Shown: positions 10,456 through 60,175 of the stretch, piece by piece
Position numbering within the stretch: position 1 is the stretch's first letter
How the letters are laid out: each line of letters opens with the position of its first letter
Assembly: GCA_964653435.1 (NCBI GenBank)
Contig: CAZZFA010000008.1
Span: forward strand, 15,253 to 79,252
Length of the DNA stretch: 64,000 nucleotides
From: an uncultured Planctomycetales bacterium
GTDB taxonomy: Bacteria > Planctomycetota > Phycisphaerae > UBA1845 > PWPN01
Direction: 5' to 3'
Notes under the pieces: generated by a model
Told to the model about the DNA's origin: nothing
The model's input: the letters and a program-made list of their open reading frames with translations, nothing else
Database searches by the model: none
Translations under genes and position numbers: made by a program

Positions 10456-10523
10456 TGCCGGCGGCTTGGGGCGGATCCACTTGGGCGTAGTTCTTGCTTA
10501 CCACCGGCGAGCAACGCGCCGCG

Positions 10524-41420: not shown

Positions 41421-41442
41421 CGGAGGAAAGGATAAGCGAGGT

Positions 41443-41464
41443 GGCGTTGTTGATCGGTCAAGCC
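41443..41464 (+). repeat. Partial third copy (3-prime 22 nt) of the 81-bp repeat
   Basis: ggcgttgttgatcggtcaagcc matches ggcgtcgttgattggtccagcc at 19/22 positions. Lies 23 nt after the GH127 stop. Confidence 0.5.
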
Positions 41465-42015
41465 TGATCGACGGGCATTCGCTCACCCCCACCAGGAATC
41501 CCAGCTCGTCATACCGGATGTCGGGCGGGTTACGCCGGCACACTCCGAACGGATCAAACGACGGCCAGCCTGACCGGCTGGCAGTCGTCCATCCCCATCG
41601 CGACTCACGGCTCGTCAGGCTGGGCGTCGCGATCGTTCAGCGTCCGGTTGATGGGCGCTGCGTTACGGCAGCGGCGATGTTGGATCGGCAAACGCGACTG
41701 CCATAAGCCTGTGCCGAAAACGCGGACGACCGACAGAGGAGCAGTGGTATTTCGGCACCGCTCGGTGTTCAGTAACTCGTTATCTGAAAAGGTGTTAGCT
41801 CCTATGCCGTAAATCGACTATATAGACAATTGTGATCAGTGACCAAGTGGTCGTCCTTGATGGGCAAGGCGGTTCGTGGCTGGCGTAAGTACCGACGTAA
41901 ACGGACGGCGAGGAGCGAAGCCGCCCCGGTGGTGACGTAGGTAATTTGATCTTCCCAGGATTCCCCGGGGGATCGGGGCATTGGATGGTCGCATTCACTT
42001 GAGGAGGTTACGCCT

Positions 42016-42045
42016 GACGGCTCGTTGACGAGGGAACGAGCCGTC
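42016..42045 (+). promoter_or_regulatory. Perfect 11-bp-stem hairpin upstream of the first island ORF
   Basis: gacggctcgtt-gacgaggg-aacgagccgtc, 31 nt before the ATG at 42077. Confidence 0.4.
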
Positions 42046-42076
42046 ACGCGAACGGTGGTCGTTCGGAGGTATCACC

Positions 42077-42298
42077 ATGAATCCATACAAGCTCAGAGCC
42101 ATCGTCGAGCTGGTCCGGCGCCAAGGCAAACTGCCGACGGATCGTTGGGGGTGTGTATTGAGCCCTGATGATCTGCTCGTCTGGTTCGGGTTGAACAGCG
42201 ATCTGAGCCCGGAGGAGCAACGTGAGGTGAAGCGGGAGTTGGCCGCGCTGGCTGATGCAGAAGCCCTCGTGGATCGTCTGCGATCGGTACGGCCGTGA
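42077..42298 (+). CDS. Hypothetical protein (73 aa)
   Basis: GGAGG RBS. No recognised family. Confidence 0.5.
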   Translation: MNPYKLRAIVELVRRQGKLPTDRWGCVLSPDDLLVWFGLNSDLSPEEQREVKRELAALADAEALVDRLRSVRP

Positions 42299-42379
42299 AC
42301 GATTTCATCGATCATGTGGATTGTTCGGGATAGCGCCGGCAGCCAGCGGTTTGCGGGGGGCGGAGGTCGTCAGACTTCG

Positions 42380-42425
42380 TAAATGTTTTCCCCGCCGGGG
42401 ACCGGTCTCACGCCCTAAACATTTA
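42380..42425 (+). promoter_or_regulatory. Inverted repeat TAAATGTTT / AAACATTTA flanking a GC-rich near-palindrome
   Basis: 9-bp arms at 42380-42388 and 42417-42425. The spacer contains ccccgccgggg. Lies in the 230-bp gap before the 42529 ORF. Confidence 0.4.
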
Positions 42426-42528
42426 GCGATTCTGCCGACCGGCGGCCCCCCGCTGACCATTCGCTCTCTGACGGTTCGCAGACAAGCGTGCGAACCGCCG
42501 ATGAGCGGCGTCGCCGGAGGTAGTCGAA

Positions 42529-43122
42529 ATGGAAATACGAGAAGCGAGTGTACAGGAAATGGTGTGTGCGGCCAGCGAGGGGCGAGGCATCAGCGACGGA
42601 GTTGAGATTGCCGAGTCTTCTCTGCTACGGGTGGAGCGCGACAGGGGCTACGGCAGCGTGCCCGGCCTGGACGATGATGAGCTGGCGGACTCCGCGGAGC
42701 TTGAGCAACAGGTCTTCCTGGCAGACTGGGGTCCGATCCTTGCGTTGCCTTGCAGGGGCTTCGACGGCGGGATTCGGCCTGTCATCGACGAGTTTGGGAA
42801 ACTCGACTGGGGCGCCTTCGGTACCTGGGATTACGAGCGCCTCAAGGGGCCATTCGACAAGGCGAGATACAAAGCCGACAAGCTCCAGGAGCAGCTCCAG
42901 TGGGCGCTCATCATGTTCAGCATGGTGCAGGAACGGTTGTCGGTGCAGGCCAGGGTGGATGTGGCGGTCCGCATCCGTGGCGGCGTGGATCTTGACGACT
43001 TCGAGGACATGAACGAACACGCATACGCCCGCTGGTATCTTCGATCGCGACGCCTTCGCAACGAGATTCGGAGGCTCCGGGCGGCGAGCTGGCGCCGGCG
43101 GTACGGGAAGCACGATGCCTGA
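42529..43122 (+). CDS. Hypothetical protein (197 aa)
   Basis: GGAGG RBS. Acidic N-terminal half and basic C-terminus (RRLRNEIRRLRAASWRRRYGK). No recognised family. Confidence 0.55.
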   Translation: MEIREASVQEMVCAASEGRGISDGVEIAESSLLRVERDRGYGSVPGLDDDELADSAELEQQVFLADWGPILALPCRGFDGGIRPVIDEFGKLDWGAFGTWDYERLKGPFDKARYKADKLQEQLQWALIMFSMVQERLSVQARVDVAVRIRGGVDLDDFEDMNEHAYARWYLRSRRLRNEIRRLRAASWRRRYGKHDA

Positions 43123-43203
43123 GGGCATCGGCTTGGCTGCCTCGGGTCGGGTCGCTCAGACGCGGGCGACCCAACCCAAAGCGGTCGCACCGGAGGTACG
43201 AAA

Positions 43204-43461
43204 ATGAAGACAACAGATAAACGGTTCTTGGTCTATAACCTGACCGATGCGGTACTGGCTTGCCCGGAACTGCTGACCTTGGCTGAGGCGCGGAGCTTCA
43301 TCAGGAGCTTCCCGGAGAGGTTCGCTCAGCAGGGATACTACCTGACAGCAACCGGCGAGAGGATCAGGCCGGAGCTCGTCGAGTTCGACATGGTGGACGT
43401 GGGGGCAGACCCACCCCTCGGCCTCAGATCGATGGCCCAAGCAACTCATTGGGGGTGGTGA
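43204..43461 (+). CDS. Hypothetical protein (85 aa)
   Basis: GGAGG RBS. Overlaps the next gene start. No recognised family. Confidence 0.5.
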   Translation: MKTTDKRFLVYNLTDAVLACPELLTLAEARSFIRSFPERFAQQGYYLTATGERIRPELVEFDMVDVGADPPLGLRSMAQATHWGW

Positions 43462-44303
43462 AGACGAATGGCTCCCAAACACGGCAAATCATCCGGCAGG
43501 CTCTCGATGACCTGGCGGCCGCCTTGGAGGCGGGCGAGAGCGATCGCCTGCGGATTTACCTGGCCAGCATGGCCAGGTTCCATCGGTACAGCCTCGGCAA
43601 CATCTTCCTGATTCACATGCAGTGCCCGCGGGCCTCGCGAATTGCGGGTTACGGGACCTGGCAAAGACTCGGTCGGCACGTGCGGCGAGGCGAAAAGGCG
43701 ATTCGCATCCTGGCGCCTGTCGTCTGGAAGGACCCCGACGACAAGGACGACAAGGCCCACCTTGTGGCGTTCAAGACGACCTGCGTGTTCGACATCTGTC
43801 AGACGGAGGGCAAACCGCTCCCCGCCTTCGCCACCGTCGCCGGCAACCCGGGTGGCCATCTGGCGCGCCTGAAAGACTTCGTTCGGGAAAGCCGCATCTC
43901 GCTGGAATACTCAGATCGGACCGGCGCCGCCGAGGGGATGTCCCTCGGCGGCAGGATCGTGATGAAGTCCGGCCTGAAGCCGGCGGAGGAGTTCGCCGTG
44001 CTCGCGCACGAAGCCGCTCATGAACTCCTGCACGCAAAGGCGGAGTCTCGACCGGAAGAGAAAGCCGTTCGCGAGACCGAGGCAGAGGCGGTAGCCTTCG
44101 TGGTCTGCCAGGCAGTCGGGCTGGACACCAATACGGCCGCCTCCGATTACATTCAGCTTTACCAGGGAGACAAGGACACGCTGTTGGCGTCGCTGGAACG
44201 GATCCAGCGAACCGCCGCCACGATCATTCACGGCGTTTTGGACGCTGATCGGCGCGCTGATGATGAGGCGACCGACGCGATCGTGCCTCTTCCCGGGGTG
44301 TGA
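43449..44303 (+). CDS. ardC: ArdC-like antirestriction protein (ssDNA-binding N-domain plus HExxH metalloprotease domain)
   Basis: YSLGNIFLIHMQCPRASRIAGYGTWQRLGRHVRRGEKAIRILAP is the ArdC-N/DUF1738 type. C-terminal LAHEAAHELLH. Confidence 0.8.
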   Translation: MGVVKTNGSQTRQIIRQALDDLAAALEAGESDRLRIYLASMARFHRYSLGNIFLIHMQCPRASRIAGYGTWQRLGRHVRRGEKAIRILAPVVWKDPDDKDDKAHLVAFKTTCVFDICQTEGKPLPAFATVAGNPGGHLARLKDFVRESRISLEYSDRTGAAEGMSLGGRIVMKSGLKPAEEFAVLAHEAAHELLHAKAESRPEEKAVRETEAEAVAFVVCQAVGLDTNTAASDYIQLYQGDKDTLLASLERIQRTAATIIHGVLDADRRADDEATDAIVPLPGV

Positions 44304-44335
44304 AGAGGCTCGCCGCGTAAGACGGCGGGCCCAAG

Positions 44336-44626
44336 GTGAAAAACATGCAAACACAAAAACCAGTTGCAAGATTCCGCGCAGGTCAGGTGAGCTGCGCGTT
44401 GTGGGAGAACGAGATCACCGTCGGCGGCAAGCGCCAGGTGGTGCTCAGGGCCACAGTCGACCGACGCTACAAGGATCGGGAAGGCGTCTGGAAGACCTCG
44501 CAGAGCTTCTCGCGGAACGAGATCCCGTTCGCGATCTACGTTCTGCAGAAGGCGTTTGAGTCAATGGTGAGCAAGCCGGATGAACAGGATGCGCCAGAGG
44601 TTGTCGAGGAGGAGCGGGTGATATGA
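44336..44626 (+). CDS. Hypothetical small protein (96 aa), possibly nucleic-acid binding
   Basis: ARFRAGQVSCALWENEITVGGKRQVVLRATVDRRYKDREGVWKTSQSF... with an acidic tail. Any resemblance to PC4/YdbC-like ssDNA binders is weak and unverified. Confidence 0.45.
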   Translation: MKNMQTQKPVARFRAGQVSCALWENEITVGGKRQVVLRATVDRRYKDREGVWKTSQSFSRNEIPFAIYVLQKAFESMVSKPDEQDAPEVVEEERVI

Positions 44627-44679: not shown

Positions 44680-45927
44680 CTATCCGCGAATCTCGAAGTT
44701 CATCCGGACGGCCTGGTAGATCTTCTCGACCAATTCCTCGGAGAGGTCGAGGGTGATCTCCCGGGTCCGGCCGTAGCGGCCGTGGGAGACGACCCGCGTG
44801 CGGGCCAACCCGTACATGTCCAACTCGTCGAGGAGATCCCCGAAGGCACGGCCGGTCATCGTGCGCATGCCGGTCCGGTCGCAGAAAGACTTGTAGGCAT
44901 CATAAGCATCGCCGGTGCCGACGGGCGCGCCCTTGGCTCGGCTCGTCGCCTCGATGACGGCAGCCATGGCGGCCTGCAACTGCACCGGGGCCGAACGAAG
45001 CAATGTGAGGTAGCGGTCCCGGTCGAGTTCCAGGGCGGCATCATCCACGAGGGCCAGGGTGAGCTTGCTTCCGGCCTTCTCGGCCAGGTACGCGCTCTTG
45101 CCCAGCAGGGCGACCGCCTGGCGGGCATCGCCGTGGTCCTGGCTGGCCATGGCCGCGATCTTCTCGACGACGCCGGGGTCCACGCTGCCGGGAGTCAGCG
45201 CCTTCTCTACGCGGATGCGGAGGATGTGCTGGAGGTCCATGGCATCGTAGGGCTTGAAGATCAGTTCGTTGAGCTTGAGGAAGGACTTTGCCCGCGGGTC
45301 CATGTGATCGGGCCAGTTCAGCTTGTTCGAGACGAAAACAAGGATCAGTTTGACCTGGATGCGCTGAGGGAGCCGACGCACGAGGAAGGTCAGGAATGCG
45401 TCGCGGTCGCGCCGGACGTTGTCCACTTCATCGACGAACAGAATCAGATAGCCTCGGTACTCGCCCAAGGCGGCCTCGATTCGGAGCATGAGCTCCTCGA
45501 GCGAGATGCCCTTCTTGTAGCGCTTGCTTGCGTTGAAAAGACACGCCAGGTCGTTGAGAGCCCGGAAGCACGGCCGCGGCGTGGACAGGTCCAAGTGCTC
45601 ATGCCGCACAGGCACGTTCTTGGCGCGGGCCATCTCCGCGAGCAGGTTCAGGAAGAAACTCAGCGTGAGTGTCTTGCCGGTTCCGGTCTTGCCCCAGATC
45701 GCCAGATGGCATGGGTGATCACCGCGCAGCACGCCGGCAAAATGGCTGCTGAGCTCCTGAATTTCGGCATCGCGGACATTTGCATTGAAGATCTCTTCCA
45801 GGACCGCCAGCTGCTCCGACCGGATGAGTTGCTCGTCATCCAGGAAGCGCCGGTCCTTGATGATTGCGTTGCCGACCATGTGCTGGATGCGGCTGGCGAT
45901 CTTGGATCGCACGGTTGTTGGTTCCAT
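44680..45927 (-). CDS. Orc1/Cdc6-type AAA+ initiator-like ATPase with C-terminal winged helix
   Basis: GGAGGTG RBS before ATG 45927. Walker A LAIWGKTGTGKT, Walker B LILFVDEVDNV, PRAKS, KPYDAMDLQHIL, HGDARQAVALL. WH domain GDLLDELDMYGLARTRVVSHGRYGRTREITL. Confidence 0.88.
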   Translation of the reverse strand: MEPTTVRSKIASRIQHMVGNAIIKDRRFLDDEQLIRSEQLAVLEEIFNANVRDAEIQELSSHFAGVLRGDHPCHLAIWGKTGTGKTLTLSFFLNLLAEMARAKNVPVRHEHLDLSTPRPCFRALNDLACLFNASKRYKKGISLEELMLRIEAALGEYRGYLILFVDEVDNVRRDRDAFLTFLVRRLPQRIQVKLILVFVSNKLNWPDHMDPRAKSFLKLNELIFKPYDAMDLQHILRIRVEKALTPGSVDPGVVEKIAAMASQDHGDARQAVALLGKSAYLAEKAGSKLTLALVDDAALELDRDRYLTLLRSAPVQLQAAMAAVIEATSRAKGAPVGTGDAYDAYKSFCDRTGMRTMTGRAFGDLLDELDMYGLARTRVVSHGRYGRTREITLDLSEELVEKIYQAVRMNFEIRG

Positions 45928-46113
45928 TGGAAAACCACCTCCAGATGTGTCCAGTGGAAGCACATGTATAAAAAGCTTTCGGCCGCCAGACGGAGTGACG
46001 TTCGAGTGGAACATCGCCGCAGGCCGCGGATGCGTCCCTTTGTTTCTGGTGTTTTTCCAGAAGGTGCCGGGGCCTGCGAGGCCCGGGGTAAGGTTTATAA
46101 ACGTCGTACCTGT

Positions 46114-46168
46114 GTAGTAGTAGTTAGTAGTAGAAAAAGAGAAGAGAAAGAGAAGAGAAAGAGAAGAG
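46114..46168 (+). repeat. (GTA)n-like tract followed by three perfect tandem 11-mers AAAGAGAAGAG on a 37-nt all-purine run
   Basis: gtagtagtagttagtagtag at 46114-46133. 11-mers at 46136-46146, 46147-46157 and 46158-46168. Lies in the intergenic region upstream of the Orc1/Cdc6 gene. Confidence 0.9.
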
Positions 46169-46289
46169 GCGCTGCAGTGGAAAACTACTCACACTGACAG
46201 CACGGGATCGATTCCCGTGATCGGTCCAGGCGGCGGTTCACCGGACAGCGAGCGAACCGCCGCAAGCGCGGTTGGCTGGAGGAAACACA

Positions 46290-46556
46290 ATGTGCAGAAA
46301 CAAAGATGCCGCGACGGTGATACGAGCCCTCGACACGGCCCTTCTGGAACAGGCCAGACGGTGGCAAGCCTTCATTTCGAGATGCGGCGCTGCGAGTGAT
46401 ACCCCTGGGGGGGATTGGGCGGAGGAGTTTTGCCTGGTCGTCCACAACCGGCTGGCCAAGCTACGGACACAGCAGACGCCGGCACAGGTGTGCCGGGCGA
46501 GCCCTGGAAGGCGCCAAGAGGAGAAGGCGCCTGACGGCGAAACGGAGGATTCGTGA
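46290..46556 (+). CDS. Hypothetical protein (88 aa)
   Basis: GGAGGAAACACAATG start context. No recognised family. Confidence 0.5.
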   Translation: MCRNKDAATVIRALDTALLEQARRWQAFISRCGAASDTPGGDWAEEFCLVVHNRLAKLRTQQTPAQVCRASPGRRQEEKAPDGETEDS

Positions 46557-46707
46557 ATCCCGCAAAACTGGAAGCTCCTGAAACTCTGAGCCCCTTTCAC
46601 CCGCATACAGTAATGAGAGACATGAAAGGCGCCCGTACTCAACTCACCGGCGGATCGCTCACCAGCGGGCGACCCGCCGGGAGGGCGGTGGCCTGGAGGC
46701 AAAACAA

Positions 46708-47078: not shown

Positions 47079-48167
47079 ATGCCCTTCGCAGATCCACTTT
47101 CGCTCTTTCCAATCGGCCAGTTCTTCGAGTCCCTGCTACCAGACTTCATTCTGGCCTTCACGTTCTTCACCGCGTTAGTCTACGCGGTGCTGGGGAGACG
47201 CTTTGATCACCAGCGCTCGGCCGTGGCCATGGCCGCGGCCGTCGGCCTGGCCCTCAGCCTGGGCCTCGTCTGGTGGGAAGCGCAAACCGGCCTGTCTGTC
47301 AGAAACCTCGGCCCGCTGGCAATCGGCTTTGCCGTCATTCTCCTGGGCATGATCATGTTTCAGGGGATCCGTCAGACCGGCGGGTCCTGGGCAGGCGCCG
47401 GCATCGCCATGGGCGCCAGCATCCTCATCGCCTGGATCCTCGGCGTGGACTGGCCTGTTGCACCGGCGGTCGTCCAGTCGCTCGCGATCGTGGGCCTGCT
47501 CGCCGGCATCATCGCGTTCTTTCTGCATCGGCATGTACCCTCGTCGGGCTATCACTGGGCCCCGGCCAACGTTCAGCCTGAACTGGCGGGCGTTCGACAC
47601 GACATGAGCGATCTTTACGAGGATCGCCGGATGGACCAGCGGATCGGGGGCGCCCTCGCACACCTCCGGGCCCGGACTGATTCGCTGTCCGTCCATCGTG
47701 AGGAGGCCCCGGACTTCATGGCTCAGCTCCGGCGGATCCTGCCGGCAGAGGGTTGGCTGACGGAACGGCTCGCCGCCCTGCGGGCGCGGGCCCACGTGAC
47801 CCGCAAGGCACACCTGGATCGGATCGATGAACTGCGCCACGTAATGGGCAAGCTTCCGCGGGACGTCCGAAAGAAAGCCGAGGACGAGCTGGCCGCCCGT
47901 TACGAAGAACTGAACATGGACAAACGGCTGGAGCGGCTGGACGCCGCCGTGGCCGAGAACGAGCGCCGCATCCGGGACCTGATACGGGAAGCCGAGGCCG
48001 CGGTCGTCCACAACGATTACCGAAAGCTTGCGGACCTGCTCGACGCCGCCCGCAAGCTGCAGGCGCACAACGGCAAGTTGTTCACGCTGATCGAGCGGGG
48101 GGAACACAGGTTGATCGAGGCGGCACAACGAGTCGCCAAGGATGTATCCGCGGTGAACGATGCGTGA
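47079..48167 (+). CDS. Hypothetical membrane protein with C-terminal coiled-coil region
   Basis: ~5 hydrophobic segments in residues 1-160, then a charged helical region (RKKAEDELAARYEELNMDKRLERLDAAVAENERRIRDLIREAEAA). Confidence 0.65.
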   Translation: MPFADPLSLFPIGQFFESLLPDFILAFTFFTALVYAVLGRRFDHQRSAVAMAAAVGLALSLGLVWWEAQTGLSVRNLGPLAIGFAVILLGMIMFQGIRQTGGSWAGAGIAMGASILIAWILGVDWPVAPAVVQSLAIVGLLAGIIAFFLHRHVPSSGYHWAPANVQPELAGVRHDMSDLYEDRRMDQRIGGALAHLRARTDSLSVHREEAPDFMAQLRRILPAEGWLTERLAALRARAHVTRKAHLDRIDELRHVMGKLPRDVRKKAEDELAARYEELNMDKRLERLDAAVAENERRIRDLIREAEAAVVHNDYRKLADLLDAARKLQAHNGKLFTLIERGEHRLIEAAQRVAKDVSAVNDA

Positions 48168-48619
48168 AGGTGGGCGCATCGCGGCTCGAAGACCGCCTGG
48201 CACCCTGGGAACCCCCGTACAAGTCCCGCGGGGAAGCGCAAGTAGGCCGGCTCCTTGACCGGTACGGGATACCCTTCTTCTACGAGAGCCCGTGGACCGT
48301 TCAAGACCAGGGGCGGCAGCGCACGTGGCATCCCGATTTCGCCTTGTTCTCCTATCGTGGGCTTGTGCTCGAGTACGCCGGCATGCCGGATCGTCCCGAT
48401 TACATGGAGGGCATTCGTAAGAAAGAGCGTGTGTACGCGCAAAACAGAATCCCGGCCGTGTTCGTGTATCCGCAGGACCTCCGCGGGCCGTGCTGGCCCG
48501 CACAGGTAATCGAGCGGATACGGGACACGTATCACGCAAGTTTCGGCCGGAAGAGTTACGGGGGTGCGGGGCACAGGTGGTACGCGTGCGGCGCACCGGC
48601 ACGCGCGAGGTACCGCTGA
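48164..48619 (+). CDS. Hypothetical protein, possible restriction-endonuclease-fold (PD-(D/E)xK-like) domain
   Basis: 4-nt overlap with the previous gene. The pattern E..VGRLLDRYGIPFFYE...HPDFALF...LVLEYAG resembles Vsr/DUF559-type cores. Unverified. Confidence 0.4.
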   Translation: MKVGASRLEDRLAPWEPPYKSRGEAQVGRLLDRYGIPFFYESPWTVQDQGRQRTWHPDFALFSYRGLVLEYAGMPDRPDYMEGIRKKERVYAQNRIPAVFVYPQDLRGPCWPAQVIERIRDTYHASFGRKSYGGAGHRWYACGAPARARYR

Positions 48620-48636
48620 TCTGATGACCGGCGGAC

Positions 48637-50763
48637 TCACGCCCTGAGGTCGAGCCAGGTCAGTAGCTCGACGGGCGTGCGTGCGCTCGATCCCGCGGCC
48701 GCTATGGCCTTCTGGCAGGCGCCGACGGCCTCGGGACAGGTCGCCAGGAGGATGATCCTGTCGAAACCGGCGTTCTTGAGCTTCGTGATGTTTTCTTTGA
48801 TGTCAGATTTGCCGGTCTCGATTTCGAGGGCGACTCGCGCTCCCGGCCGCTCGGCCAGGAGATCAACAATGCCGTCGCCGGGTACGGGGTACTCGTGGGT
48901 GACCTCGTAGCCTTCGGACTCCAGATACTCGGCTGCCCGCTGAGCCCAGAACTGGTGCTGCAGGCTGGCGCGGGGGACAGTGCCGGGGTCAATGCCCATC
49001 TCGTCACACAGGGACCGGCCGTACTCCGTCAACTGGTAGAGCACGACCTGGCCGGAGCGCGTGGCGATGGTGGTGGCCTCGATGAAGCCGCCGGCGGCGA
49101 GCTGCTGCCGGACGGCGTTGCCTTTTCGTCGCGACAGATTCAGCCGCTGATATCGTGAGACGGTGGTGGACAGCGGCCTGGCCGCCACGTCGGCCAGGAA
49201 CCGGATCTCTTCCCGAGACATCTCGGGAAGAGTCTTGGGCGGTTGGCTATTTGGATCATCAGATGAATCATCTACTGGATATGGTCCGGATGAAGTCATC
49301 TGTGATTCAATGGGGGATGGTGGGTGGGGATTATTCTCTTGATATTCATCCGGGGCCGGAACGGGAGTGATCGGTGCCCATAAGGCCAGCGCGGGGCTAT
49401 TCGGTCCGGAATCACCGGAACAGGTCCCCATCCGGTCCCGAACCTGGTCATCCGAGACCGAGCCCTCTTGGATCGGAAACAACGGGACTCGGACCAGGAA
49501 GGGTTCGGGGTGTTCGTCCGCCAGGCGCACGATCGCGGTACCGATGGGCAACGTGCTGAGGGCCTCTTTCTGTTCCTCAGTCAGGTTCATGGCCCCGGCA
49601 ATGGTCTGGATGTCGCCGCGCAGCTTCTGGCTCAAGGCCAGGGTGGCATACGAGTTGGCAAAGGCGACCTTGCTCAAGAGGGATGCGGACTGATCGACAA
49701 AGACGTAACCCATGCCGTACTGGCGGATCATTCGGATTGAATTCTCCAGCACGGATTCCTTGGCTTCGGCGGCCTTCTGCAGCAGAAGGTTGTGCGCCTC
49801 CTCCAGAACGATCAGGTTGGTCAGTTTGGTTTGGGGCCCCTGGGCCAGGCGATAGCGGTACAGGTATAGCGTGAGGGCCTCCGAGAACATGGTTCGGTCG
49901 GAGTTGCTGGACAGGCCGTCCATCTCCAGGACCACGTTGTGGTTCAGCAGATCGCGGACGTGGCTGTTGTTCTGCGTGTTGACCACGGAACCGAACTCGC
50001 CATAGGTCATGGCAAGCAGGATCCTCTCGGCCGAAGCCTGCCACATGGCGGCTCGGCCTCGAAGCTTGTTGGATTGGAGCCAGATCAGAAGATCATGAAC
50101 TGTGGGCCATCGGGTCGGGTGTCCATCGAAGACGCCGGCGTCGCGGAACAGCTTGTCCAGCCCGGCGACCAGAAGGCTGATGACGCCCTCGCCGCCGAGG
50201 TAAGCGGCGGCGATGACGTCAACGATCAGCTTGATCCAGACGTTCGGCTCGCAGCCTGGCGGCGGGATCAGGGGGTTGAATCGGAAGGGAGAAACGTCCC
50301 GCCCGATGGTGTACACGTGAAGATCGGATTGGACGGCCATGAGGTCGCGGTACCCTCGCTTCCAGTCGAGGGCCAGCACGTTGATGCCGCGGGCCATGAT
50401 CCCCTTCATAAGAACGAAGGTCAGGTTGGTCTTCCCGGAGCCGCTTCGGCCGGCCACGAGGATGTGTTCTTTCAGCCTGGCGCTTTTGAGGAAGAAGGGG
50501 TAGAGCTCACGCTGGCCGTAAGAGACGTTGCCGACCTGAATGTCGCCGGCCAAGGCAAAGGTTCGCTCTGGCGGCGGGAACGGCGATCGGTCGGGCATGT
50601 AGTTCTGACCGAGATGGCGTGCGGCCAGCAGCTCGAGCATCTGCTCGATGTCGGCCTTGCCAGCTGGATCCGACTCGGACAGGTACACCGCCCAGAGTCG
50701 ATCGACTTTGGGGCCCAGGACAGGTTTGAGCTTACGACATAGTTCCTGAACACGAAGCATCAT
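48637..50763 (-). CDS. HerA/FtsK-superfamily (DUF87-like) ATPase fused to wHTH and C-terminal PD-(D/E)xK nuclease-like domain
   Basis: Walker A ILVAGRSGSGKTN and Walker B NLIVLEEAHNLL. Pro/Ser-rich linker. wHTH-like RRKGNAVRQQLAAGGFIEA...VVLYQLTEYG. Terminal GYEVTHEYPVPGDGIVDLLAERPGARVALEIETGKSD. Confidence 0.75.
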   Translation of the reverse strand: MMLRVQELCRKLKPVLGPKVDRLWAVYLSESDPAGKADIEQMLELLAARHLGQNYMPDRSPFPPPERTFALAGDIQVGNVSYGQRELYPFFLKSARLKEHILVAGRSGSGKTNLTFVLMKGIMARGINVLALDWKRGYRDLMAVQSDLHVYTIGRDVSPFRFNPLIPPPGCEPNVWIKLIVDVIAAAYLGGEGVISLLVAGLDKLFRDAGVFDGHPTRWPTVHDLLIWLQSNKLRGRAAMWQASAERILLAMTYGEFGSVVNTQNNSHVRDLLNHNVVLEMDGLSSNSDRTMFSEALTLYLYRYRLAQGPQTKLTNLIVLEEAHNLLLQKAAEAKESVLENSIRMIRQYGMGYVFVDQSASLLSKVAFANSYATLALSQKLRGDIQTIAGAMNLTEEQKEALSTLPIGTAIVRLADEHPEPFLVRVPLFPIQEGSVSDDQVRDRMGTCSGDSGPNSPALALWAPITPVPAPDEYQENNPHPPSPIESQMTSSGPYPVDDSSDDPNSQPPKTLPEMSREEIRFLADVAARPLSTTVSRYQRLNLSRRKGNAVRQQLAAGGFIEATTIATRSGQVVLYQLTEYGRSLCDEMGIDPGTVPRASLQHQFWAQRAAEYLESEGYEVTHEYPVPGDGIVDLLAERPGARVALEIETGKSDIKENITKLKNAGFDRIILLATCPEAVGACQKAIAAAGSSARTPVELLTWLDLRA

Positions 50764-51359
50764 GGTTGGTCACCTCCTTCATCCCCGAGGATCTGCAGCT
50801 TTCGAAAAGCAGACAGATACTGCTGAGCGGATTCAGGCAGGCGTTCACGGATTCGGGACACGTCGCGCCAGAAGGTCACTCGCTCCGCGCGCTGTTCGGC
50901 GCGCAGGTCGTGCATGCGTTTTTCGTAGACGGCATAGGCTTCCTCTGTCGCGGGGTTAGCGTTTCGGGCGAGTTCGTTGAAGGCGTAGCACTGGGACCAC
51001 TGGATATCGAGCATGTTCTTCTTGTAGATCTCCTCTCGCTGTTTGATCTGGCCAAGGACATCGTCAAGGGCCATCCAACTGGTGTGCTTGCGATCGAACA
51101 AAACCGCGGTCTCCGGCTCATGGTCCGGGACCGCGAAGTAGCCCTCTTGAACGAGATCTTCGACGGTCTGCGGACCGTCATCGATTCCAGCGACGTCTTC
51201 GTCGGCAGGAGAAGCGGGCTTGGCGGTCCAATAGGGTCGGACACCGTACCGCGGCAACGACGGCGTACGGCCATACTGATGATGCCTGCCGTACAGGTAC
51301 TGGTAGGCAATGGAGCCGTACGGAGTACCTGCGGCGGGACTTGTTGTTGATGGATTCAT
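50760..51359 (-). CDS. Hypothetical protein (199 aa), translationally coupled to the HerA-like gene
   Basis: GAGGTG RBS before ATG 51359. ATGA overlap with the downstream ATPase start. No recognised family. Confidence 0.6.
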   Translation of the reverse strand: MNPSTTSPAAGTPYGSIAYQYLYGRHHQYGRTPSLPRYGVRPYWTAKPASPADEDVAGIDDGPQTVEDLVQEGYFAVPDHEPETAVLFDRKHTSWMALDDVLGQIKQREEIYKKNMLDIQWSQCYAFNELARNANPATEEAYAVYEKRMHDLRAEQRAERVTFWRDVSRIRERLPESAQQYLSAFRKLQILGDEGGDQP

Positions 51360-51404
51360 GGGATCACCTCGGATGTGACTATTGCGCAGTGGTAATACGT
51401 TCGA

Positions 51405-51507
51405 GTTTATATGTGTTTCGGTCTGGCCGATGCGGCCGGGCGGCCTGCCGCCGGTTGGGTAGGCCGCCGCGGGGGTGTCACGAGGCCGTGGTGGCAAAGG
51501 TTTATAT
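51405..51507. promoter_or_regulatory. Divergent control region: two GTTTATAT boxes flanking an 8-bp-stem inverted repeat
   Basis: GTTTATAT at 51405-51412 and 51500-51507. ggcggcct (51439-51446) pairs with aggccgcc (51461-51468). Lies between the divergent starts at 51359 (-) and 51545 (+). Confidence 0.45.
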
Positions 51508-51824: not shown

Positions 51825-52478
51825 ATGCTCTCGGCCCACGGCTGCCCAAAGTGCGGCGGCTCGCTGAAGATGATCGGCGAGAGCAGGTGTGCTTGCCGCG
51901 AGTGTTTGTACGAGTTCGACCCGACCGTCCACTTTCAGCGGTGTCCGGCCTGCGAAGGCCGGCTGCGGCTGCGGATCTGCCGGTACGTCTGCCAGAAGTG
52001 CGGGGCAGACGTACCGTCCCGCTTCGTGTTCGACGGGGTCGTCTTCGATCACGAGTACTTCCGCCGGAAGATGGCGGAGTCGCGTGAGCGGCAGCGGGAA
52101 CAGCGTGCCGAGCGCCAACAGCAGGTGGCGGAGAACCGGTCAGCGTCGGCGGAACCTCCGCCGGTGGACCTGGCTTCCGTGCCCGGTCTGCTGCAGGCGT
52201 TGAACGGCCTGACCGCGATTCCCGATCTGGCGGCTTGGGCGCCCCTGATCCAGGGTTTCGACTTGCAGCGCTACGAGGCGCATTTGCAGGCCCATATCGG
52301 GGCGACCGAACGCCGGTTCGATGATCTGCCAGCCCTGGACGAAAACCCTCGCCTGGACCGCATCTGGCGGTTCATCGCGATCATCTTCATGGCCCATGCC
52401 GGCCGTATCCGGGTCCGGCAACAGGGGCCGACCATTCTGGTGGCGAAAGTACATGAGACTGACACAGAAGGACCGTGA
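51825..52478 (+). CDS. Multi-zinc-ribbon protein (217 aa)
   Basis: CPKCGG, CACREC, CPACEG and CQKCG pairs in the first 70 aa. The frame is open from 51693 with no canonical start before 51825, so the true start is uncertain. Confidence 0.6.
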   Translation: MLSAHGCPKCGGSLKMIGESRCACRECLYEFDPTVHFQRCPACEGRLRLRICRYVCQKCGADVPSRFVFDGVVFDHEYFRRKMAESRERQREQRAERQQQVAENRSASAEPPPVDLASVPGLLQALNGLTAIPDLAAWAPLIQGFDLQRYEAHLQAHIGATERRFDDLPALDENPRLDRIWRFIAIIFMAHAGRIRVRQQGPTILVAKVHETDTEGP

Positions 52479-52809
52479 GTTCCTGGAAACACTCAAACGG
52501 CTCATGGAGTCGAAGGACCTGTGGGTGGACTTCGCGTCGGGCCACCCAGGTTACATGGTCCTGCGGGGTACTTACGGCGACAAAGTCCATCAGGCCTTCC
52601 GCATGAGCCGTCAGGGCGTCCGCTGGCGTTTTCAACGTCTGTTCAACGAGGTGTACGTCAATGCGTTCGAGACCATCCTGTTCATCGAGAAGATCTTCGG
52701 TCCGCAGCTCCGCGAGCACGCCGTACGAATCAGCCAGGAGCGGTACACGAACCGCCAGCAGCATCGACAAGCCGGGTTCCGATCGGCCAGCGAGGTGAAC
52801 CGCGAGTGA
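52453..52809 (+). CDS. Hypothetical protein (118 aa)
   Basis: MRLTQKDREFLETLKRLMESKDLW... Overlaps both neighbours. No recognised family. Confidence 0.5.
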   Translation: MRLTQKDREFLETLKRLMESKDLWVDFASGHPGYMVLRGTYGDKVHQAFRMSRQGVRWRFQRLFNEVYVNAFETILFIEKIFGPQLREHAVRISQERYTNRQQHRQAGFRSASEVNRE

Positions 52810-53297
52810 CCGATTCAACCAAGATCGACTACCGGTACCGTCGTATCAGCCAGATCGGGGATGTAACCGACCTGGTCACCATGCTGTTTCCGGGAAACCG
52901 AAACCAGCAGCACGCGGCGGCGCGGATTCTTCTCGTGTTGCGCGATGCCGAGGATCTGCGGGACAAGCTCAACGACCTGCAGCGGCGTTATGGTATCTCA
53001 CGGAGGACGCTGGAACGGACTCGGGCCAAGCTTGTCCGCCTGGGCCTCATCGAGCGCATCAGTTGGATGAACACCCGCTACGGTGGCCGGGAGGGTTGGA
53101 AGCTGTCTAGCCGGATGAGTTCATCGTTGCGCCAGCTGGCGGATCGGATTGATACTTGGCGAGCAGACCAGCGGCCGGAGGGTGCTCGGAAAGAGCAGGC
53201 GCTGATCGAGCTGTTGCGGCCTGCTGCGGCGGCGAGAAAGGAATTGCCTGAAGTGCGACGACCTGATGAGCGAATCGAAAGCCGGTCGTCTTCATGA
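52806..53297 (+). CDS. Putative winged-helix DNA-binding protein (163 aa)
   Basis: GTG start in a GTGA overlap. YGISRRTLERTRAKLVRLGLIERI is HTH-like. Confidence 0.5.
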   Translation: MTDSTKIDYRYRRISQIGDVTDLVTMLFPGNRNQQHAAARILLVLRDAEDLRDKLNDLQRRYGISRRTLERTRAKLVRLGLIERISWMNTRYGGREGWKLSSRMSSSLRQLADRIDTWRADQRPEGARKEQALIELLRPAAAARKELPEVRRPDERIESRSSS

Positions 53298-53401: not shown

Positions 53402-53806
53402 ATGACATGGAGACCCAATGCATATCTATTGGAAGGCCAACTCGATAACACGCAGCCCGGCAGGATTACCGGCTGGATGCGGTTTGCGGGCCTTCCGCAG
53501 AAGGTAACCCTTGAACTGGAGGGGGATTTCGACCCGGATATCCGCGGACGGAGAATCGCTTTTCGGAATGCCTACTCCGGCAGATCTGCCGACGCCGAAG
53601 AGTACATGGACGGCTTCCAGCCGCGACAAGTCGGCAAGGTCGGCCACATCACGCTGGGCGGACCACCGCAATCCTGGACCGATTTCCCGTACATCGAGTG
53701 GATTTCGACCGAGAATGACCGTGTGGTCATGTACCTGGAGCCACACCAAGTGGCCGTGATTGATGAGTCGATCGAGGTTGTAGCCGCGGAACCTGGGCTT
53801 GGGTAG
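53402..53806 (+). CDS. Hypothetical protein, family C copy 1 (single domain)
   Basis: MTWRPNAYLLEGQLDNTQPGRITGWMRFAGLPQKV... aligns with the N-terminal ~125 aa of the 56982..57653 product, roughly half identical by eye. Confidence 0.65.
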   Translation: MTWRPNAYLLEGQLDNTQPGRITGWMRFAGLPQKVTLELEGDFDPDIRGRRIAFRNAYSGRSADAEEYMDGFQPRQVGKVGHITLGGPPQSWTDFPYIEWISTENDRVVMYLEPHQVAVIDESIEVVAAEPGLG

Positions 53807-53821
53807 CCCGGGGCCTAGCTT

Positions 53822-53852
53822 GGCCGGGACCCAAAGCCTTATAAACCCGGCC
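53822..53852 (+). terminator. Hairpin after family C copy 1 (7-bp GC stem, 17-nt loop containing TTATAAA)
   Basis: ggccggg...cccggcc, 16 nt after the stop. There is no U-tract, so its function is uncertain. Confidence 0.3.
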
Positions 53853-54169
53853 GTATTACCACTGGCCAATCCTCACAATGAGTGCACGTAATGTGCCCAC
53901 TGGCGAGCCGTATCGGCTCTGCCTGAGGACTCCTGAGCACGTGACAGCACGGACGCACCGCGTTCAGTCATCACGAAGCCGGTCCTCGACGAGAAACCGG
54001 GATTGGCCGAGAGCCAGCCCATGTTTGACGTAGTCTTCCCGCTCTTCTCGACAGACCGCCGTTTTGGGGCGGTTTGATGATCGTGTTCTGAAATCCGTAG
54101 ACCCCGAGCCCCGCTATTGGAGTGAGGCCCGGGGTCGTTGTGTCTCTGGATCGAAAGGAGGTTCTGCAT

Positions 54170-54424
54170 ATGTCCTACCGCAAAGGCCGCGTGACCGCGG
54201 TCCACCACCACAGTGGATGCTGGGAAGTAGTTGTTGAAGGTGAACGCCCCGGGTCCTTCCACATCGACAACATCTTCATTTGGTCGATGGTAGACGCCTA
54301 CGGCGCCGACTGGATCGGCCGCGAGGTGGAGTACAAAGATGGCTGGATGCAATTCCTGGACGCCGTCTCTGATGGTCCCACCTTGCATCCCGCCCCGATA
54401 TCCCGCCCGTTCCCCCTCTCGTAA
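54170..54424 (+). CDS. Hypothetical small protein (84 aa)
   Basis: AAAGGAGG RBS before ATG 54170. No recognised family. Confidence 0.55.
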   Translation: MSYRKGRVTAVHHHSGCWEVVVEGERPGSFHIDNIFIWSMVDAYGADWIGREVEYKDGWMQFLDAVSDGPTLHPAPISRPFPLS

Positions 54425-54563
54425 CGGTCGCTCCCGAAGCTTCTTCGCGTGAGAACATCGCCCAGGCGACGAACCCGCGCGCGTGCGCGGGCGCCCGTGT
54501 TTATCAAGTATCCGCGGTCTCACGCCGGCGATGGCATGAGACCCACCTTGCAAGGAGAAGGTT

Positions 54564-55052
54564 ATGTCTGAACGATATGCCGCAAGCATCACGATCGGCG
54601 GCCAGATCAAGCAGAGCGATCTGGCTGCGTTGCTGGAGGCCATCACACAAGCGTCGGCCTGTCACGACTGGGGCGAACCGCCGTTCGAGCCGAAGTCGGC
54701 TCAGGATCTGGCGGCAGCAACCCGTGACGGCCATCTCTTTCTGTGCGACGACCAGACCCGGTACGGCGAATTCCCAGAGCTGGAGACGGCCTGCCGCGAG
54801 CTGGGCCTGTCGTACACCCGCTGGTGCGAGGGTTACTGCGAGTATGACGCCGAGGTCGTCGACTGGCGACCGGGCATGAACGAGCCCCTCTGCCGCGCTG
54901 GCAGCAACTCGGGCGATGCCACCTTCGTGCCGGCAGATGAGGTCCGCAAGGCCCTCAAGCACCTCGAATCCAACCACATCGGCAGAGCGAGAGAACTCGT
55001 GCGAAAGCTCTGCCCCGACATCCCCGATCTCCCGCCGTTTACGATCGTCTGA
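54564..55052 (+). CDS. Hypothetical protein (162 aa)
   Basis: AAGGAG RBS. No recognised family. Confidence 0.55.
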   Translation: MSERYAASITIGGQIKQSDLAALLEAITQASACHDWGEPPFEPKSAQDLAAATRDGHLFLCDDQTRYGEFPELETACRELGLSYTRWCEGYCEYDAEVVDWRPGMNEPLCRAGSNSGDATFVPADEVRKALKHLESNHIGRARELVRKLCPDIPDLPPFTIV

Positions 55053-55209
55053 TCCCCTCAGCTCACTCACAGGTGTCTTGAGTCAGGCCCGCTGTCCGGA
55101 TTCACGGTGGTTCCGCGCGCTCGCGTGGGCCGTGGCGCCGGCATCTGAAGAGCGACCCCATGACCCGTGTGGCATGGTGTCGCACGCATCAACCATGTTG
55201 GAGGAAACC

Positions 55210-56829
55210 ATGAGAACGATTCAAGCAACGGTCAACCCCCGGCTTCTGACCAAAGCCAATCGCCTGTTTACCGGCACGCTGCAGGGCCGGATCATCGAGA
55301 TCCTGCAGAATGCCCGCCGGGCAGGCGCTACAAGAGTCGAGATCACGAACAGCAACGGCTGGATCACTGTCCGTGATAACGGCGAAGGTATCGACGACTT
55401 CCAGCGGCTGCTCGATCTGGGCGGTTCCGGCTGGGACGATTCCCTGGAGGCAAGCGAGGATCCCGCGGGTGTGGGCCTGTTCTGCCTGGCGCCGCGCGAG
55501 GTCACCATCCGGAGCCGCGGACAGATCGCGGTGATTCATAAGGACGGCTGGACCGGCGAAGCCGTCAGGATCATCACTGATCCTGAACCATGCGAGGGAA
55601 CGGTTCTGGCGTTCCAGGATGAGCCTTGGACATCGTCCGAGGTCGATCGGAACGCCGTCTTCACCGGCATGGACGTTACCGTGGACGGCACCGCCTGTCC
55701 TCGCGAGCCATTCGCTTCGGATCAGGCCACGGCGTACCCCGATCTGGGCTGCCGCATCGAAGTCCGCGAGTACACGGACCTGCATCCCTGGCACCGTTCC
55801 TGCCACCGTGGGCACTACGGCGACAACGTCCTGGTCAACTTCCACGGCCAGGTTGTACCGTTCCACCATTGTCCGTTGAGCGAGCACCACCTGCACTTCC
55901 TGATCGACATGACCGGCGAGCCTACGGGCATCCGGCTCATGCTGCCGGCACGAACGTGCCTGGTTCAGAATGAGTCGTACCAGGCGCTGCTGGTGGCCAT
56001 GGAACTGGAAGCGTTCCGCTACCTCCAGCACCGCGGTCACCATCGACTGGCCTACAAGGAATACCTTCGGGCCCGGCAACTGGGCATCATGCTGCCGGAG
56101 GCAACACCGACGTTCCGCGTCGGGCTCCTCAGCGGCGATACGCCCGAGCCGATCGAAGTGACCAAGCCCGACAACGTGCCGTTGTCCAGCTGTTATCGCA
56201 TGAACCTGGATCCTGCCCTTGGCGATGAGACCGACGAGGCCAACGTGCACCTGCTGGCGGCATTGGGCAAGTTTGCAGAGCCCTTTGTGCCCGTGGATGT
56301 CCGCAGTGAGTACGACGGCTATTCCTGGGCCAAGCTGCCAACGGTCGACAAGGTCGAGTTTGAGGCCGGTAAGGTTATGCGGGAGTCATGGCTCTGGTCG
56401 GGGAAGATCGTGTGCGTCAAGCGGCTTCAGATCACTGCGCACACCAGCGATGGTCGAGTCTTCAGTTCGCCGGTCTGCATGGGTATCCCGCCGGTGGGCA
56501 AGTCCGAGGAGAACCGGTACCGCGAGGATACCGTTTACGTAACGCCGGAAGCCCAGGAGAGCCTGGCGCCGGCGCACATCTGGTTCCATCTGGGTGGCTG
56601 GAGCGACGACGGGGATACCTACGACACCCAGGAACATGAGTTTACCGAGAACCTCGATCGCTTCTGGGCGCTCCTGGTCGGCCCCGACGAGCAGCTTCGG
56701 CGTGATCTCATGGCGGCCGCCGATGGCATCAAACCGAGGTGGAAGGCTGTAACACTGTCCGCGAACGGCACCGTTCGGATCCGGTTCAGGAGGGGCAAGG
56801 CCAAGGTCGTTCGACCGCCTGTCTGCTGA
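55210..56829 (+). CDS. GHKL-superfamily (HATPase_c-like) ATPase with large unknown C-terminal region
   Basis: GGAGG RBS before ATG 55210. N-box IIEILQNARRAGATRVEI, G1 VRDNGEGI, G2-like DPAGVGLF. ~400 aa of unrecognised sequence follow. Confidence 0.7.
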   Translation: MRTIQATVNPRLLTKANRLFTGTLQGRIIEILQNARRAGATRVEITNSNGWITVRDNGEGIDDFQRLLDLGGSGWDDSLEASEDPAGVGLFCLAPREVTIRSRGQIAVIHKDGWTGEAVRIITDPEPCEGTVLAFQDEPWTSSEVDRNAVFTGMDVTVDGTACPREPFASDQATAYPDLGCRIEVREYTDLHPWHRSCHRGHYGDNVLVNFHGQVVPFHHCPLSEHHLHFLIDMTGEPTGIRLMLPARTCLVQNESYQALLVAMELEAFRYLQHRGHHRLAYKEYLRARQLGIMLPEATPTFRVGLLSGDTPEPIEVTKPDNVPLSSCYRMNLDPALGDETDEANVHLLAALGKFAEPFVPVDVRSEYDGYSWAKLPTVDKVEFEAGKVMRESWLWSGKIVCVKRLQITAHTSDGRVFSSPVCMGIPPVGKSEENRYREDTVYVTPEAQESLAPAHIWFHLGGWSDDGDTYDTQEHEFTENLDRFWALLVGPDEQLRRDLMAAADGIKPRWKAVTLSANGTVRIRFRRGKAKVVRPPVC

Positions 56830-56981
56830 GTATTCCCATTTACCCAGTTCATGAGATTCACCGGCGTTCCAGTGGAGATTCTGCGCGTGTGCGCGGAGCT
56901 GGAGGCCGGAGTCAGTGGCCCACGGGCACGCCCTGGGCTTGAGGCGTGCCCGCAGAGGCACCTAATCGGAGGTATCGAACC

Positions 56982-60084: not shown

Positions 60085-60175
60085 ATTCGTTCTTCGTCGC
60101 AGGACAGGTCACGCTCGTCACAGCGATGCGGCGGGCGTGGCCTTTTTCTTTGCGCATCGCGGAAAGGATACGCAT

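Follow-up and report, generated by a model that had tools for sequence, protein, structure and literature searches.

A probable archaeal-type Orc1/ORB replication module on an integrative element of Planctomycetota

Replication initiators follow a standard split, with DnaA and Rep proteins in bacteria and Orc1/Cdc6/ORC in archaea and eukaryotes, and an orc1/cdc6 gene found in bacterial DNA raises the question of what it does there and on which sequences it acts. The gene considered here (orc1) encodes a protein of 415 amino acids and lies in a 64,000-nucleotide stretch (the window, at its full length) of contig CAZZFA010000008.1 from an uncultured Planctomycetales bacterium. A first-pass annotation, made from the sequence alone, had proposed that orc1 adjoins the replication origin of a mobile element, with an array of polypurine 11-mers as the set of initiator-binding sites. 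The protein was found to be a bona fide member of the Orc1/Cdc6 initiator family with a Cdc6_C domain, and together with sequences upstream of its gene that resemble archaeal origin recognition boxes (ORBs) it probably constitutes a replication module of archaeal ancestry, acquired by transfer between domains and serving an integrative planctomycete element. The placing of an origin beside orc1 agrees with the protein family and with the ORB-like, origin-like layout of the upstream DNA, while the cis-element which had been singled out was the wrong one.

All of the signature motifs quoted in the first-pass annotation were recovered from the translation of the minus-strand gene (GKTGTGKT at residues 79-86, FVDEVD at 164-169, HGDARQAV at 265-272, with HGDARQAVALL also present, and RVVSHGRYGRTREITL at 378-393), as was the C-terminal winged helix. 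The gene starts with the ATG at 45927, and the same start is kept in homologues. In a search of curated profiles, residues 51-393 matched TIGR02928 with 239.6 bits (cut-off 181.3; E 4.5e-71), while the species-level equivalog models were not reached, as is expected in a divergent clade; Pfam matches were to Cdc6_C (4.3e-21; 75 bits, cut-off 25), Cdc6_lid (2e-15) and AAA_22. The closest sequences with solved structures were Aeropyrum ORC1-DNA (2v1u, 8.5e-54) and Sulfolobus Orc1-1 (2qby_A, 2.3e-51). An AlphaFold2 (AF2) model of moderate confidence (pLDDT 69) was compared with the PDB using Foldseek; 2v1u_A (2e-22), 2qby_A and 2qby_B led the matches, and the top 50 were all Orc1/Cdc6/ORC chains. 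Best matches to a non-initiator AAA+ clade lacking Cdc6_C would have refuted the first-pass annotation, and an IstB-, TnsC- or STAND-like protein is ruled out by the TIGR02928, Pfam and structure matches and by the presence of Cdc6_C.

The ATPase residues are intact (Walker A K85, Walker B D166/E167, and R212 and R269 as arginine finger and sensor 2) and are kept in 41-48 of 48 aligned relatives, both bacterial and archaeal. Mutants of Sulfolobus Orc1-1 described by Dueber et al. implicate G120/L121 of the initiator-specific motif (ISM), R341 of the helix-turn-helix (HTH) and R365 of the wing in origin binding (PMC3089459); G140-I141, R360 and R384 of the planctomycete protein align to these positions. 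Comparison with the orc1 gene of a close relative, locus L003, gave 34 nucleotide differences in DNA whose surroundings are only ~90% identical. Because 30 of the 34 differences are at third codon positions and only 2 amino acids are changed, selection on orc1 is judged to be strongly purifying.

Matches to archaeal Orc1 profiles and structures begin at about residue 51 and so leave out the first 50 residues (45780-45927). R27 and L29-I35 are invariant within the bacterial clade, and the segment as a whole shows conservation above the protein average, although confidence in its modelled structure is low. The segment may be an adaptor to a bacterial partner.

The host of the module was assessed from the surrounding genes and from the distribution of relatives. 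Genes for AcrB, BNR and GH127 proteins flank the locus on the left. When 5.8 billion proteins were searched, hundreds of clusters were retrieved, the best 120 of which were 73-100% identical and, where the source was named, came from Phycisphaerae, Tepidisphaeraceae or Planctomycetota metagenome-assembled genomes (MAGs). A scan of one genome per species yielded 24 loci, and the MAGs that contain them all belong to Planctomycetota (Phycisphaerae, Sedimentisphaerales, Pirellulales and Planctomycetales); two of the 24 are inside complete chromosomes (5.4 and 6.5 Mb) and two MAGs carry two copies each. An archaeal source of the window is ruled out by the bacterial flank genes and by the finding of all 24 loci in Planctomycetota. 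The bacterial host and mobile-element setting given to orc1 by the first-pass annotation are supported by these flank genes and MAG loci, and by the element genes described below.

An exhaustive representative search arranged the relatives of the protein in three tiers, namely a tight Planctomycetota clade, a few sequences that are 40-57% identical (one or more of these share a contig with a bacterial HU gene), and archaeal chromosomal Orc1 proteins at no more than 37% identity. The last tier includes a contig with an intein-bearing PolB, arcTGT and NAC, as well as sequences from Acidilobus (34%), Micrarchaeota (32%) and a Hodarchaeales cluster (30%). Phylogenetic placement had been proposed as a check in the first-pass annotation, and a crude neighbour-joining tree set the bacterial Orc1 sequences apart from the archaeal ones. 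Database labels for the relatives are 'AAA family ATPase' or 'Cdc6/Cdc18 family protein', and because some members already bear the latter label the existence of the protein is already known. What is new is the conserved ORB-type origin region, its mobile-element context and the problem of the missing helicase. To our knowledge, bacteria have not been reported to initiate replication through an archaeal-type Orc1/ORB system, and no description of a bacterial Orc1/ORB module was found in the searchable full-text literature. The initiators reported in a survey of the Planctomycetes plasmidome are RPA and HTH_36, and Cdc6/Orc1 is mentioned nowhere in it; in a large survey of plasmid initiators from bacteria, Orc1/Cdc6 figures solely as a comparator from archaea and eukaryotes.

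The DNA upstream of orc1 was aligned for ~20 related Planctomycetota loci, and boxes were counted in 26 sequences (25 loci and the window). Four TCCAGTGGAA-like boxes, which the first-pass annotation had not noticed, were found in the window within 263 bp (45921-46183; see Table 1 for all features). Read along the orc1 strand, the order is distal box (family form CAGTGAGAGTAGTTTTCCACTGGAAC), spacer, GACGACGCTTATAAA, GC-rich segment, GTTCCACTGGAAAACTACTCTCACTGAC, TTTATATA element and two half-boxes. With ≤1 mismatch allowed, 51 copies of the core TTCCAsTGGAA were counted in 11.5 kb of DNA upstream of orc1 compared to 5 in the other 420 kb, an enrichment of ~370-fold. The two extended boxes are inverted, 159-207 bp separate them in 18 of 20 loci, and the distal box is 250-430 bp from the orc1 start. 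In 17 of 20 loci the spacer has a length of 49-62 nt, and its mean GC content is 0.36 compared to 0.57 for the loci; read on the orc1 strand, it is rich in T, poor in G and ends in (TAC)n, 2-9 TAC units being present at this position in 17 loci.

Table 1. Positions of orc1, its upstream elements and neighbouring element genes in the window
Feature	Position	Strand	Details
Downstream element genes	42529..44626	+	197-aa protein (14 loci); ArdC-N antirestriction protein (43449-44303); 96-aa protein (15 loci)
orc1/cdc6 gene, 415 aa	44680..45927	-	AAA+ domain, Cdc6 lid, Cdc6_C winged helix
Mini-ORB-like half-box TTTCCAATGGAAC	45921..45933	-	Overlaps orc1 start codon; 1 mismatch to TTTCCACTGGAAC
Shine-Dalgarno sequence GGAGGTGG of orc1	45935..45942	-	8 nt 5' of ATG; read from sequence; conserved in upstream alignment
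Mini-ORB-like box CTTCCACTGGACA at -32	45948..45960	-	Between TATA-like element and Shine-Dalgarno sequence; family consensus GCTTCCAsTGAAC
Promoter-like TTTATATA-type element	45966..45976	-	GCTTTTTATAC on orc1 strand; conserved alignment block
Proximal extended ORB-like box, ~28 bp	45985..46012	-	GTTCCACTCGAACGTCACTCCGTCTGGC on orc1 strand; family consensus GTTCCACTGGAAAACTACTCTCACTGAC
Variable GC-rich segment	46013..46091	.	Nested inverted repeats; GC 0.65 in window; sequence unconserved in family
Conserved motif TACGACGTTTATAAACC	46092..46108	-	Family consensus GACGACGCTTATAAAyC
10-bp palindrome GTTTATAAAC	46093-46102		Inside conserved motif 46092..46108
Spacer between motif and distal box	46109-46170		(GTA)n and polypurine array in window
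(GTA)n tract	46114..46133		(TAC)n on orc1 strand; Tandem Repeats Finder (TRF); conserved part of spacer
Polypurine tract	46133..46170		38-nt purine run; 3 perfect AAAGAGAAGAG units (46136-46168)
Distal extended ORB-like box GCTGCAGTGGAAAACTACTCACACTGAC	46171..46198	+	Inverted copy of proximal box
Two hairpins	46201-46219, 46230-46263	+	Second with perfect 10-bp stem
Neighbouring four-gene module	47079..51497		362-aa (+); 151-aa PD-(D/E)xK-like (+); 708-aa HerA/VirB4-like ATPase (-); 245-aa (-)

The motif between the GC-rich segment and the spacer is nearly invariant as GACGACGCTTATAAA, the columns ACG.TTATAAA being invariant in the alignment, and GACGACGCTTATAAAyC was found in 22 of 26 loci at ≤3 mismatches. 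The palindrome which the first-pass annotation had reported here is incidental, the family consensus not being palindromic. Similarity between the DNA of the window and L003 is broken from 46197 to 46638, and on the orc1 side it starts where the distal box has its outer edge (46196). A box TTCCAATGGAA is present at -5 of orc1 in 9 related loci, and the half-box over the start codon of the window gene is a putative autoregulatory site. A scan of 45.8-47.2 kb for sigma-70 promoters and intrinsic terminators found none, and the TTTATATA-type element was without a match in the sigma-70 consensus scan.

The ORB-like boxes are the likely sites of the initiator. In locus L029, where the Orc1 relative is 42% identical, both boxes are changed alike (TTCCGATGGAA and TTCCATCGGAA) and flank a low-GC spacer, and locus L030 also has boxes; because the L029 boxes are altered in parallel and boxes are present in L030, boxes and initiator co-vary.

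Oligonucleotides bound by Pyrococcus Cdc6/Orc1 include ORB1 (...AGAGTTTCATTTCCACTGGAACC...) and the 13-bp mini-ORB TTCCAGTGGAACT, in which 'TTCC' and 'GAA' are perfectly conserved (PMC1904270). The ORB1/mini-ORB core of Pyrococcus furiosus and the planctomycete consensus TTTCCACTGGAAC agree at all 13 nt, and an archaeal chromosomal orc1 (locus L031) is preceded by GTTCAACTGGAAAATGAGGAGATGGAGGGG and inverted copies of it, a close match to the planctomycete boxes. The standard layout of an archaeal origin is one of inverted boxes around an AT-rich unwinding element, beside orc1. Archaeal chromosomal origins (Pyrococcus oriC, Sulfolobus oriC1/oriC2, Aeropyrum ori1) and the planctomycete module are alike in initiator family (30-37% identity to the Orc1-1 type), in DNA-contact residues, in the TTCCA-N-TGGAA dyad, in inverted boxes flanking an AT-rich element and in the position of the origin directly 5' of the initiator gene. 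The planctomycete module differs in having a bacterial host and a location on an integrative mobile element, and by its extra GACGACGCTTATAAA motif, its (TAC)n tract, the presence of AAACTACTCTCACTGAC for the G-string half and the lack of a nearby MCM gene.

Archaeal plasmids, viruses and integrated elements that bear Orc1/Cdc6 (for example haloarchaeal megaplasmids) also carry the initiator on a mobile element, presumably for their own replication. All matches to the protein in PLSDB were annotated orc1/cdc6 replication initiators of haloarchaeal plasmids, at only 25-30% identity; those hosts supply MCM, GINS and an archaeal replisome, whereas the replisome of the planctomycete host is bacterial. 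Bacterial iteron plasmids (RepA-type, and the RPA family of Planctomycetes) are alike in having the initiator beside repeated sites, an AT-rich region and autoregulation of the initiator's own promoter, and a relationship between the WH1 domain of RepA and the winged helix of Orc1 has been suggested (preprint 10.1101/2024.09.03.610885). Those plasmids combine a winged-helix-only Rep with direct iterons, in contrast to the full AAA+ Orc1/Cdc6 and two inverted boxes of the planctomycete module.

The orc1 module probably belongs to an integrative element, itself probably conjugative or mobilisable, with orc1 and the origin region near the integrase end. This was concluded because in relatives a tyrosine integrase gene abuts a tRNA gene (L008, L011 and L012), tRNA genes are found 2-4 kb 3' of orc1 (six related loci, six different tRNAs) and a Replic_Relax gene is present (8 related loci), and because of the ArdC protein and VirB4/HerA-like ATPase of the element. 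The 197-, 96-, 362-, 151-, 708- and 245-aa proteins are syntenic with orc1 in 7-15 loci. The left edge of the element is at ~42.0 kb, similarity to L003 ending at ~42015 beside the GH127 gene, and its right end lies beyond the 64-kb window. Since integrase, Replic_Relax and tRNA are missing from the end at which relatives have them (41421-42528), the copy in the window may be truncated or immobilised.

Integrative and conjugative elements (ICEs) and their actinomycete counterparts (AICEs, with an FtsK-like transfer ATPase), which replicate after excision, share with the planctomycete element insertion at tRNA genes and a tyrosine integrase (both in the relatives), ArdC, DUF2958, a single large ATPase of the HerA/FtsK/VirB4 class and a replication module of their own. 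The planctomycete element differs in its archaeal-type initiator and in its ATPase, the best match of which is an archaeal CedD model; neither a relaxase nor a complete set of type IV secretion genes was recognised in the element.

In the mechanism proposed, ATP-bound Orc1 would engage the two inverted ~28-bp boxes (45985-46012 and 46171-46198) via its winged helix and ISM, the boxes bracketing a ~55-nt low-GC, strand-asymmetric spacer with the GACGACGyTTATAAA motif adjoining. The DNA would be bent and underwound by Orc1, the spacer would melt and a replicative helicase would be loaded. Through the half-boxes at -32 and at the start codon Orc1 would repress its own gene, and the origin would be active upon excision of the element and silent or repressed when integrated. 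Archaeal Orc1 acts via recruitment of MCM; because no MCM is encoded nearby, the helicase here is presumably host DnaB or another partner. A preference for the T-rich single-stranded DNA of its unwinding region has been described for Aeropyrum Orc1 (PMC8287685).

A more specific proposal, tentative and somewhat doubtful, is that bacterial mobile elements captured a complete archaeal cassette of initiator and origin, which is kept under strong selection across Planctomycetota and fires without MCM, its Orc1 having been rewired to a DnaB-type or other non-MCM helicase, perhaps via the N-terminal segment. Should this be true, it would constitute a hybrid archaeal/bacterial initiation pathway, previously undescribed. 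A widespread, strongly conserved Orc1/ORB module on bacterial mobile elements, if true, would mean that initiation machinery can cross domains, and it raises the question of what helicase is loaded by an initiator of the Orc1 type where the replisome is a DnaB/DnaC one. The 'eukaryote-like' traits of Planctomycetota are often debated. The compact 1.6-kb orc1 and origin cassette is a candidate vector backbone for planctomycete genetics, and would be a ready-made replicon if it does fire; such genetics is stated to be limited by a lack of replicative vectors (preprint 10.1101/2024.01.22.576637).

A number of observations weigh against replication from these boxes. Binding by Orc1 and replication itself are inferred from sequence. 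The boxes of the window differ from the family consensus at 2-5 positions, and the G-string of the canonical archaeal ORB is absent, the bacterial box having the tail AAACTACTCTCACTGAC compared to ...GGGG(G) in archaea. Of 98 representative open reading frames within 10 kb of orc1 in the related loci, none matched an MCM or DnaB family at E<1e-32, and neither helicase was found in the part of the element within the window. No free circular form was found, IMG/VR being without a relative and PLSDB holding only the haloarchaeal Orc1 proteins (<~31% identity); GC skew shows no sign switch at 46 kb; and the window copy has no integrase, Replic_Relax or tRNA gene within 64 kb. The half-boxes over the promoter are equally well compatible with a purely regulatory role. 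In relatives, the strong hits for genes near orc1, as represented by the 25 top families, likewise included no MCM or DnaB and no primase or polymerase.

The alternative that makes most of these points is that Orc1 serves the element as a transcription factor only, as an autorepressor and a switch of the divergent operons, with the boxes as operators and replication being passive or achieved otherwise. Orc1-2 paralogues are transcription regulators in some archaea, and the half-boxes at -32 and over the start codon, the boxes held in a divergent promoter region, the absence of MCM or another helicase nearby, the lack of a GC-skew switch and the failure to find a plasmid form would all suit such a role. 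Autoregulation does not in itself speak against initiation, as known initiators combine the two, and a regulator alone does not account well for the strict conservation of the ATPase motifs and arginine finger or for a distal box so far from the orc1 start. The inverted boxes, the 49-62-nt low-GC strand-asymmetric spacer and the extra motif together have the architecture of an origin. An origin is preferred because the constrained spacer, the distant inverted box and the extra motif exceed the needs of an operator, and a purely regulatory Orc1 is considered unlikely.

A different role was considered in view of the neighbouring four-gene module, in which Orc1 would act in a defence or conflict system with the HerA-like ATPase, the PD-(D/E)xK nuclease and the membrane protein, sensing or acting on foreign DNA. 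The ATPase and the 151-aa protein gave weak PADLOC matches (mad8 2e-11, HerA 7e-10, and PDC-S68 / HEAT_CxxC_PD-DEXK), and these genes are syntenic with orc1 in 7-13 loci. PADLOC returned no match for Orc1, however, and the 708-aa ATPase fits conjugation and DNA-translocation models better, its best NCBIfam match being the DNA-translocating ATPase CedD (7.7e-21), followed by TraC (4e-8) and VirB4. With chromosomal archaeal initiators as its closest kin outside the bacterial clade, and a cognate set of conserved DNA motifs directly 5' of its gene in the manner of a typical initiator/origin pair, Orc1 is very unlikely to be a defence component. The four-gene module, also found in L001, L002, L014 and others, may be an unusual DNA-transfer apparatus, possibly also archaeal-type. 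Its 362-aa member, transcribed divergently, was considered as a replication partner and rejected; in alignment it is a polytopic membrane protein with a coiled-coil tail, and it had no PDB, Pfam or PHROG match.

It is less probable still that the repeats are an oriT or partition site used by the Replic_Relax or ATPase proteins and that their adjacency to orc1 is coincidental. Inverted repeats do lie beside a Replic_Relax gene in 8 relatives, with conjugation-like genes close by, but the boxes match archaeal ORBs and co-vary with Orc1, the window keeps them though Replic_Relax is missing, and no ParA/ParB was detected.

The remaining alternative is the iteron-type origin of the first-pass annotation, with the three 11-bp polypurine repeats as initiator-binding sites, and it is scarcely tenable, since an array which is real, with a period close to that of a helical turn, and which no other tandem repeat of the window exceeds in strength is nevertheless missing in 17 of 20 related origins, is replaced by CT tracts of other periods in the two closest relatives (L003 and L023) and is unlike the orc1-promoter boxes, the TTCC...GGAA dyad being the target of Orc1-family winged helices (PMC1904270).

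The array itself is beyond chance. TRF gave it a period of 11, 3.4 copies, 96% matches and a score of 67, the highest in the 64-kb window, where only 3 arrays reach a score of 50, and the polypurine tract contains a perfect 30-nt mirror repeat (46139-46168). It coincides with a local GC minimum (0.33-0.38 over 46100-46160 compared to ~0.62 for the window). A CT/GA-rich tract occupies the spacer only in the window, L003 and L023 (periods of 11, ~9 and ~8 nt); the remaining relatives have a TATATA-type AT-rich stretch where the window has the polypurine array. The tract is best read as a lineage-specific filling of an easily melted, unwinding-element-like spacer and not as a binding array. What related loci conserve with the gene is the origin-like upstream layout and not the 11-mer repeat that the first-pass annotation had suggested searching for. 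Secondary structure of the origin strand was not significantly stable (z = -1.85).

Three further observations concern the boxes and the origin region. A lone ORB-like 13-mer, TCTCCACTGGAAC (1 mismatch), is present on the minus strand at 56866-56878, in the intergenic gap after a HATPase gene. Chance alone is estimated to give ~0.08 such sites per 64 kb, and the 13-mer could be either coincidental or a second site for Orc1. In L025 (CP070782.1, a 6.5-Mb chromosome; 10001-10506) only the first 174 codons of orc1 are present, with GACGACGCTTATAAA and the proximal box retained and no recognisable distal box, and the locus looks like a decaying copy. Three independent assemblies (L008, L015 and L020) break 195-276 nt 5' of orc1, within the origin region, which suggests assembly-graph tangles from a shared low-complexity origin, or several related elements per sample.

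The first-pass annotation had placed the palindrome, the (GTA)n tract, the 11-mers and the hairpins accurately. The two hairpins exist as described, but they fall beyond the conserved origin block and within the leader of the divergent transcript. The second is one of a recurring family of hairpins, GGCGGTTCG-N(8-14)-CGAACCGCC, of which the other copy in the window is at 42473-42496; such hairpins occur ~30-50 nt 5' of start codons in the window and 12 related loci, and precede the 197-aa gene and the origin-adjacent divergent transcript in the window and most related elements. An Rfam scan of 41-64 kb gave no known-RNA match for the intergenic hairpins. The recurring hairpin probably serves the element as an operator or as an RNA structure in leaders.

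Among the other genes, the 197-aa protein was modelled by AF2 (pLDDT 76.5) as a helical bundle with no significant fold match in the PDB. Zinc-ribbon and winged-helix proteins are encoded at 51825-53297, with weak matches, mostly to archaeal families and too weak to use (a rubrerythrin-like archaeal domain, 3e-5; TFS4; HVO_2523; Sta1/Lrs14, E 0.05-0.07), though they would be in keeping with an archaeal character of the element as a whole. Two paralogous DUF2958-related genes (53402-53806 and 56946-57653) resemble the N-terminal part of the L001 DUF2958 protein (54% and 37% identity), and a 637-aa HATPase-domain protein is encoded between them (53402-57653). At 58996-62077 a gene for a CobS-like AAA_5 ATPase (phrog_249, 5e-55) precedes one for a CobT/VWA protein (phrog_1576, 5e-59), and CobS/CobT-like pairs are common in phages and mobile elements.

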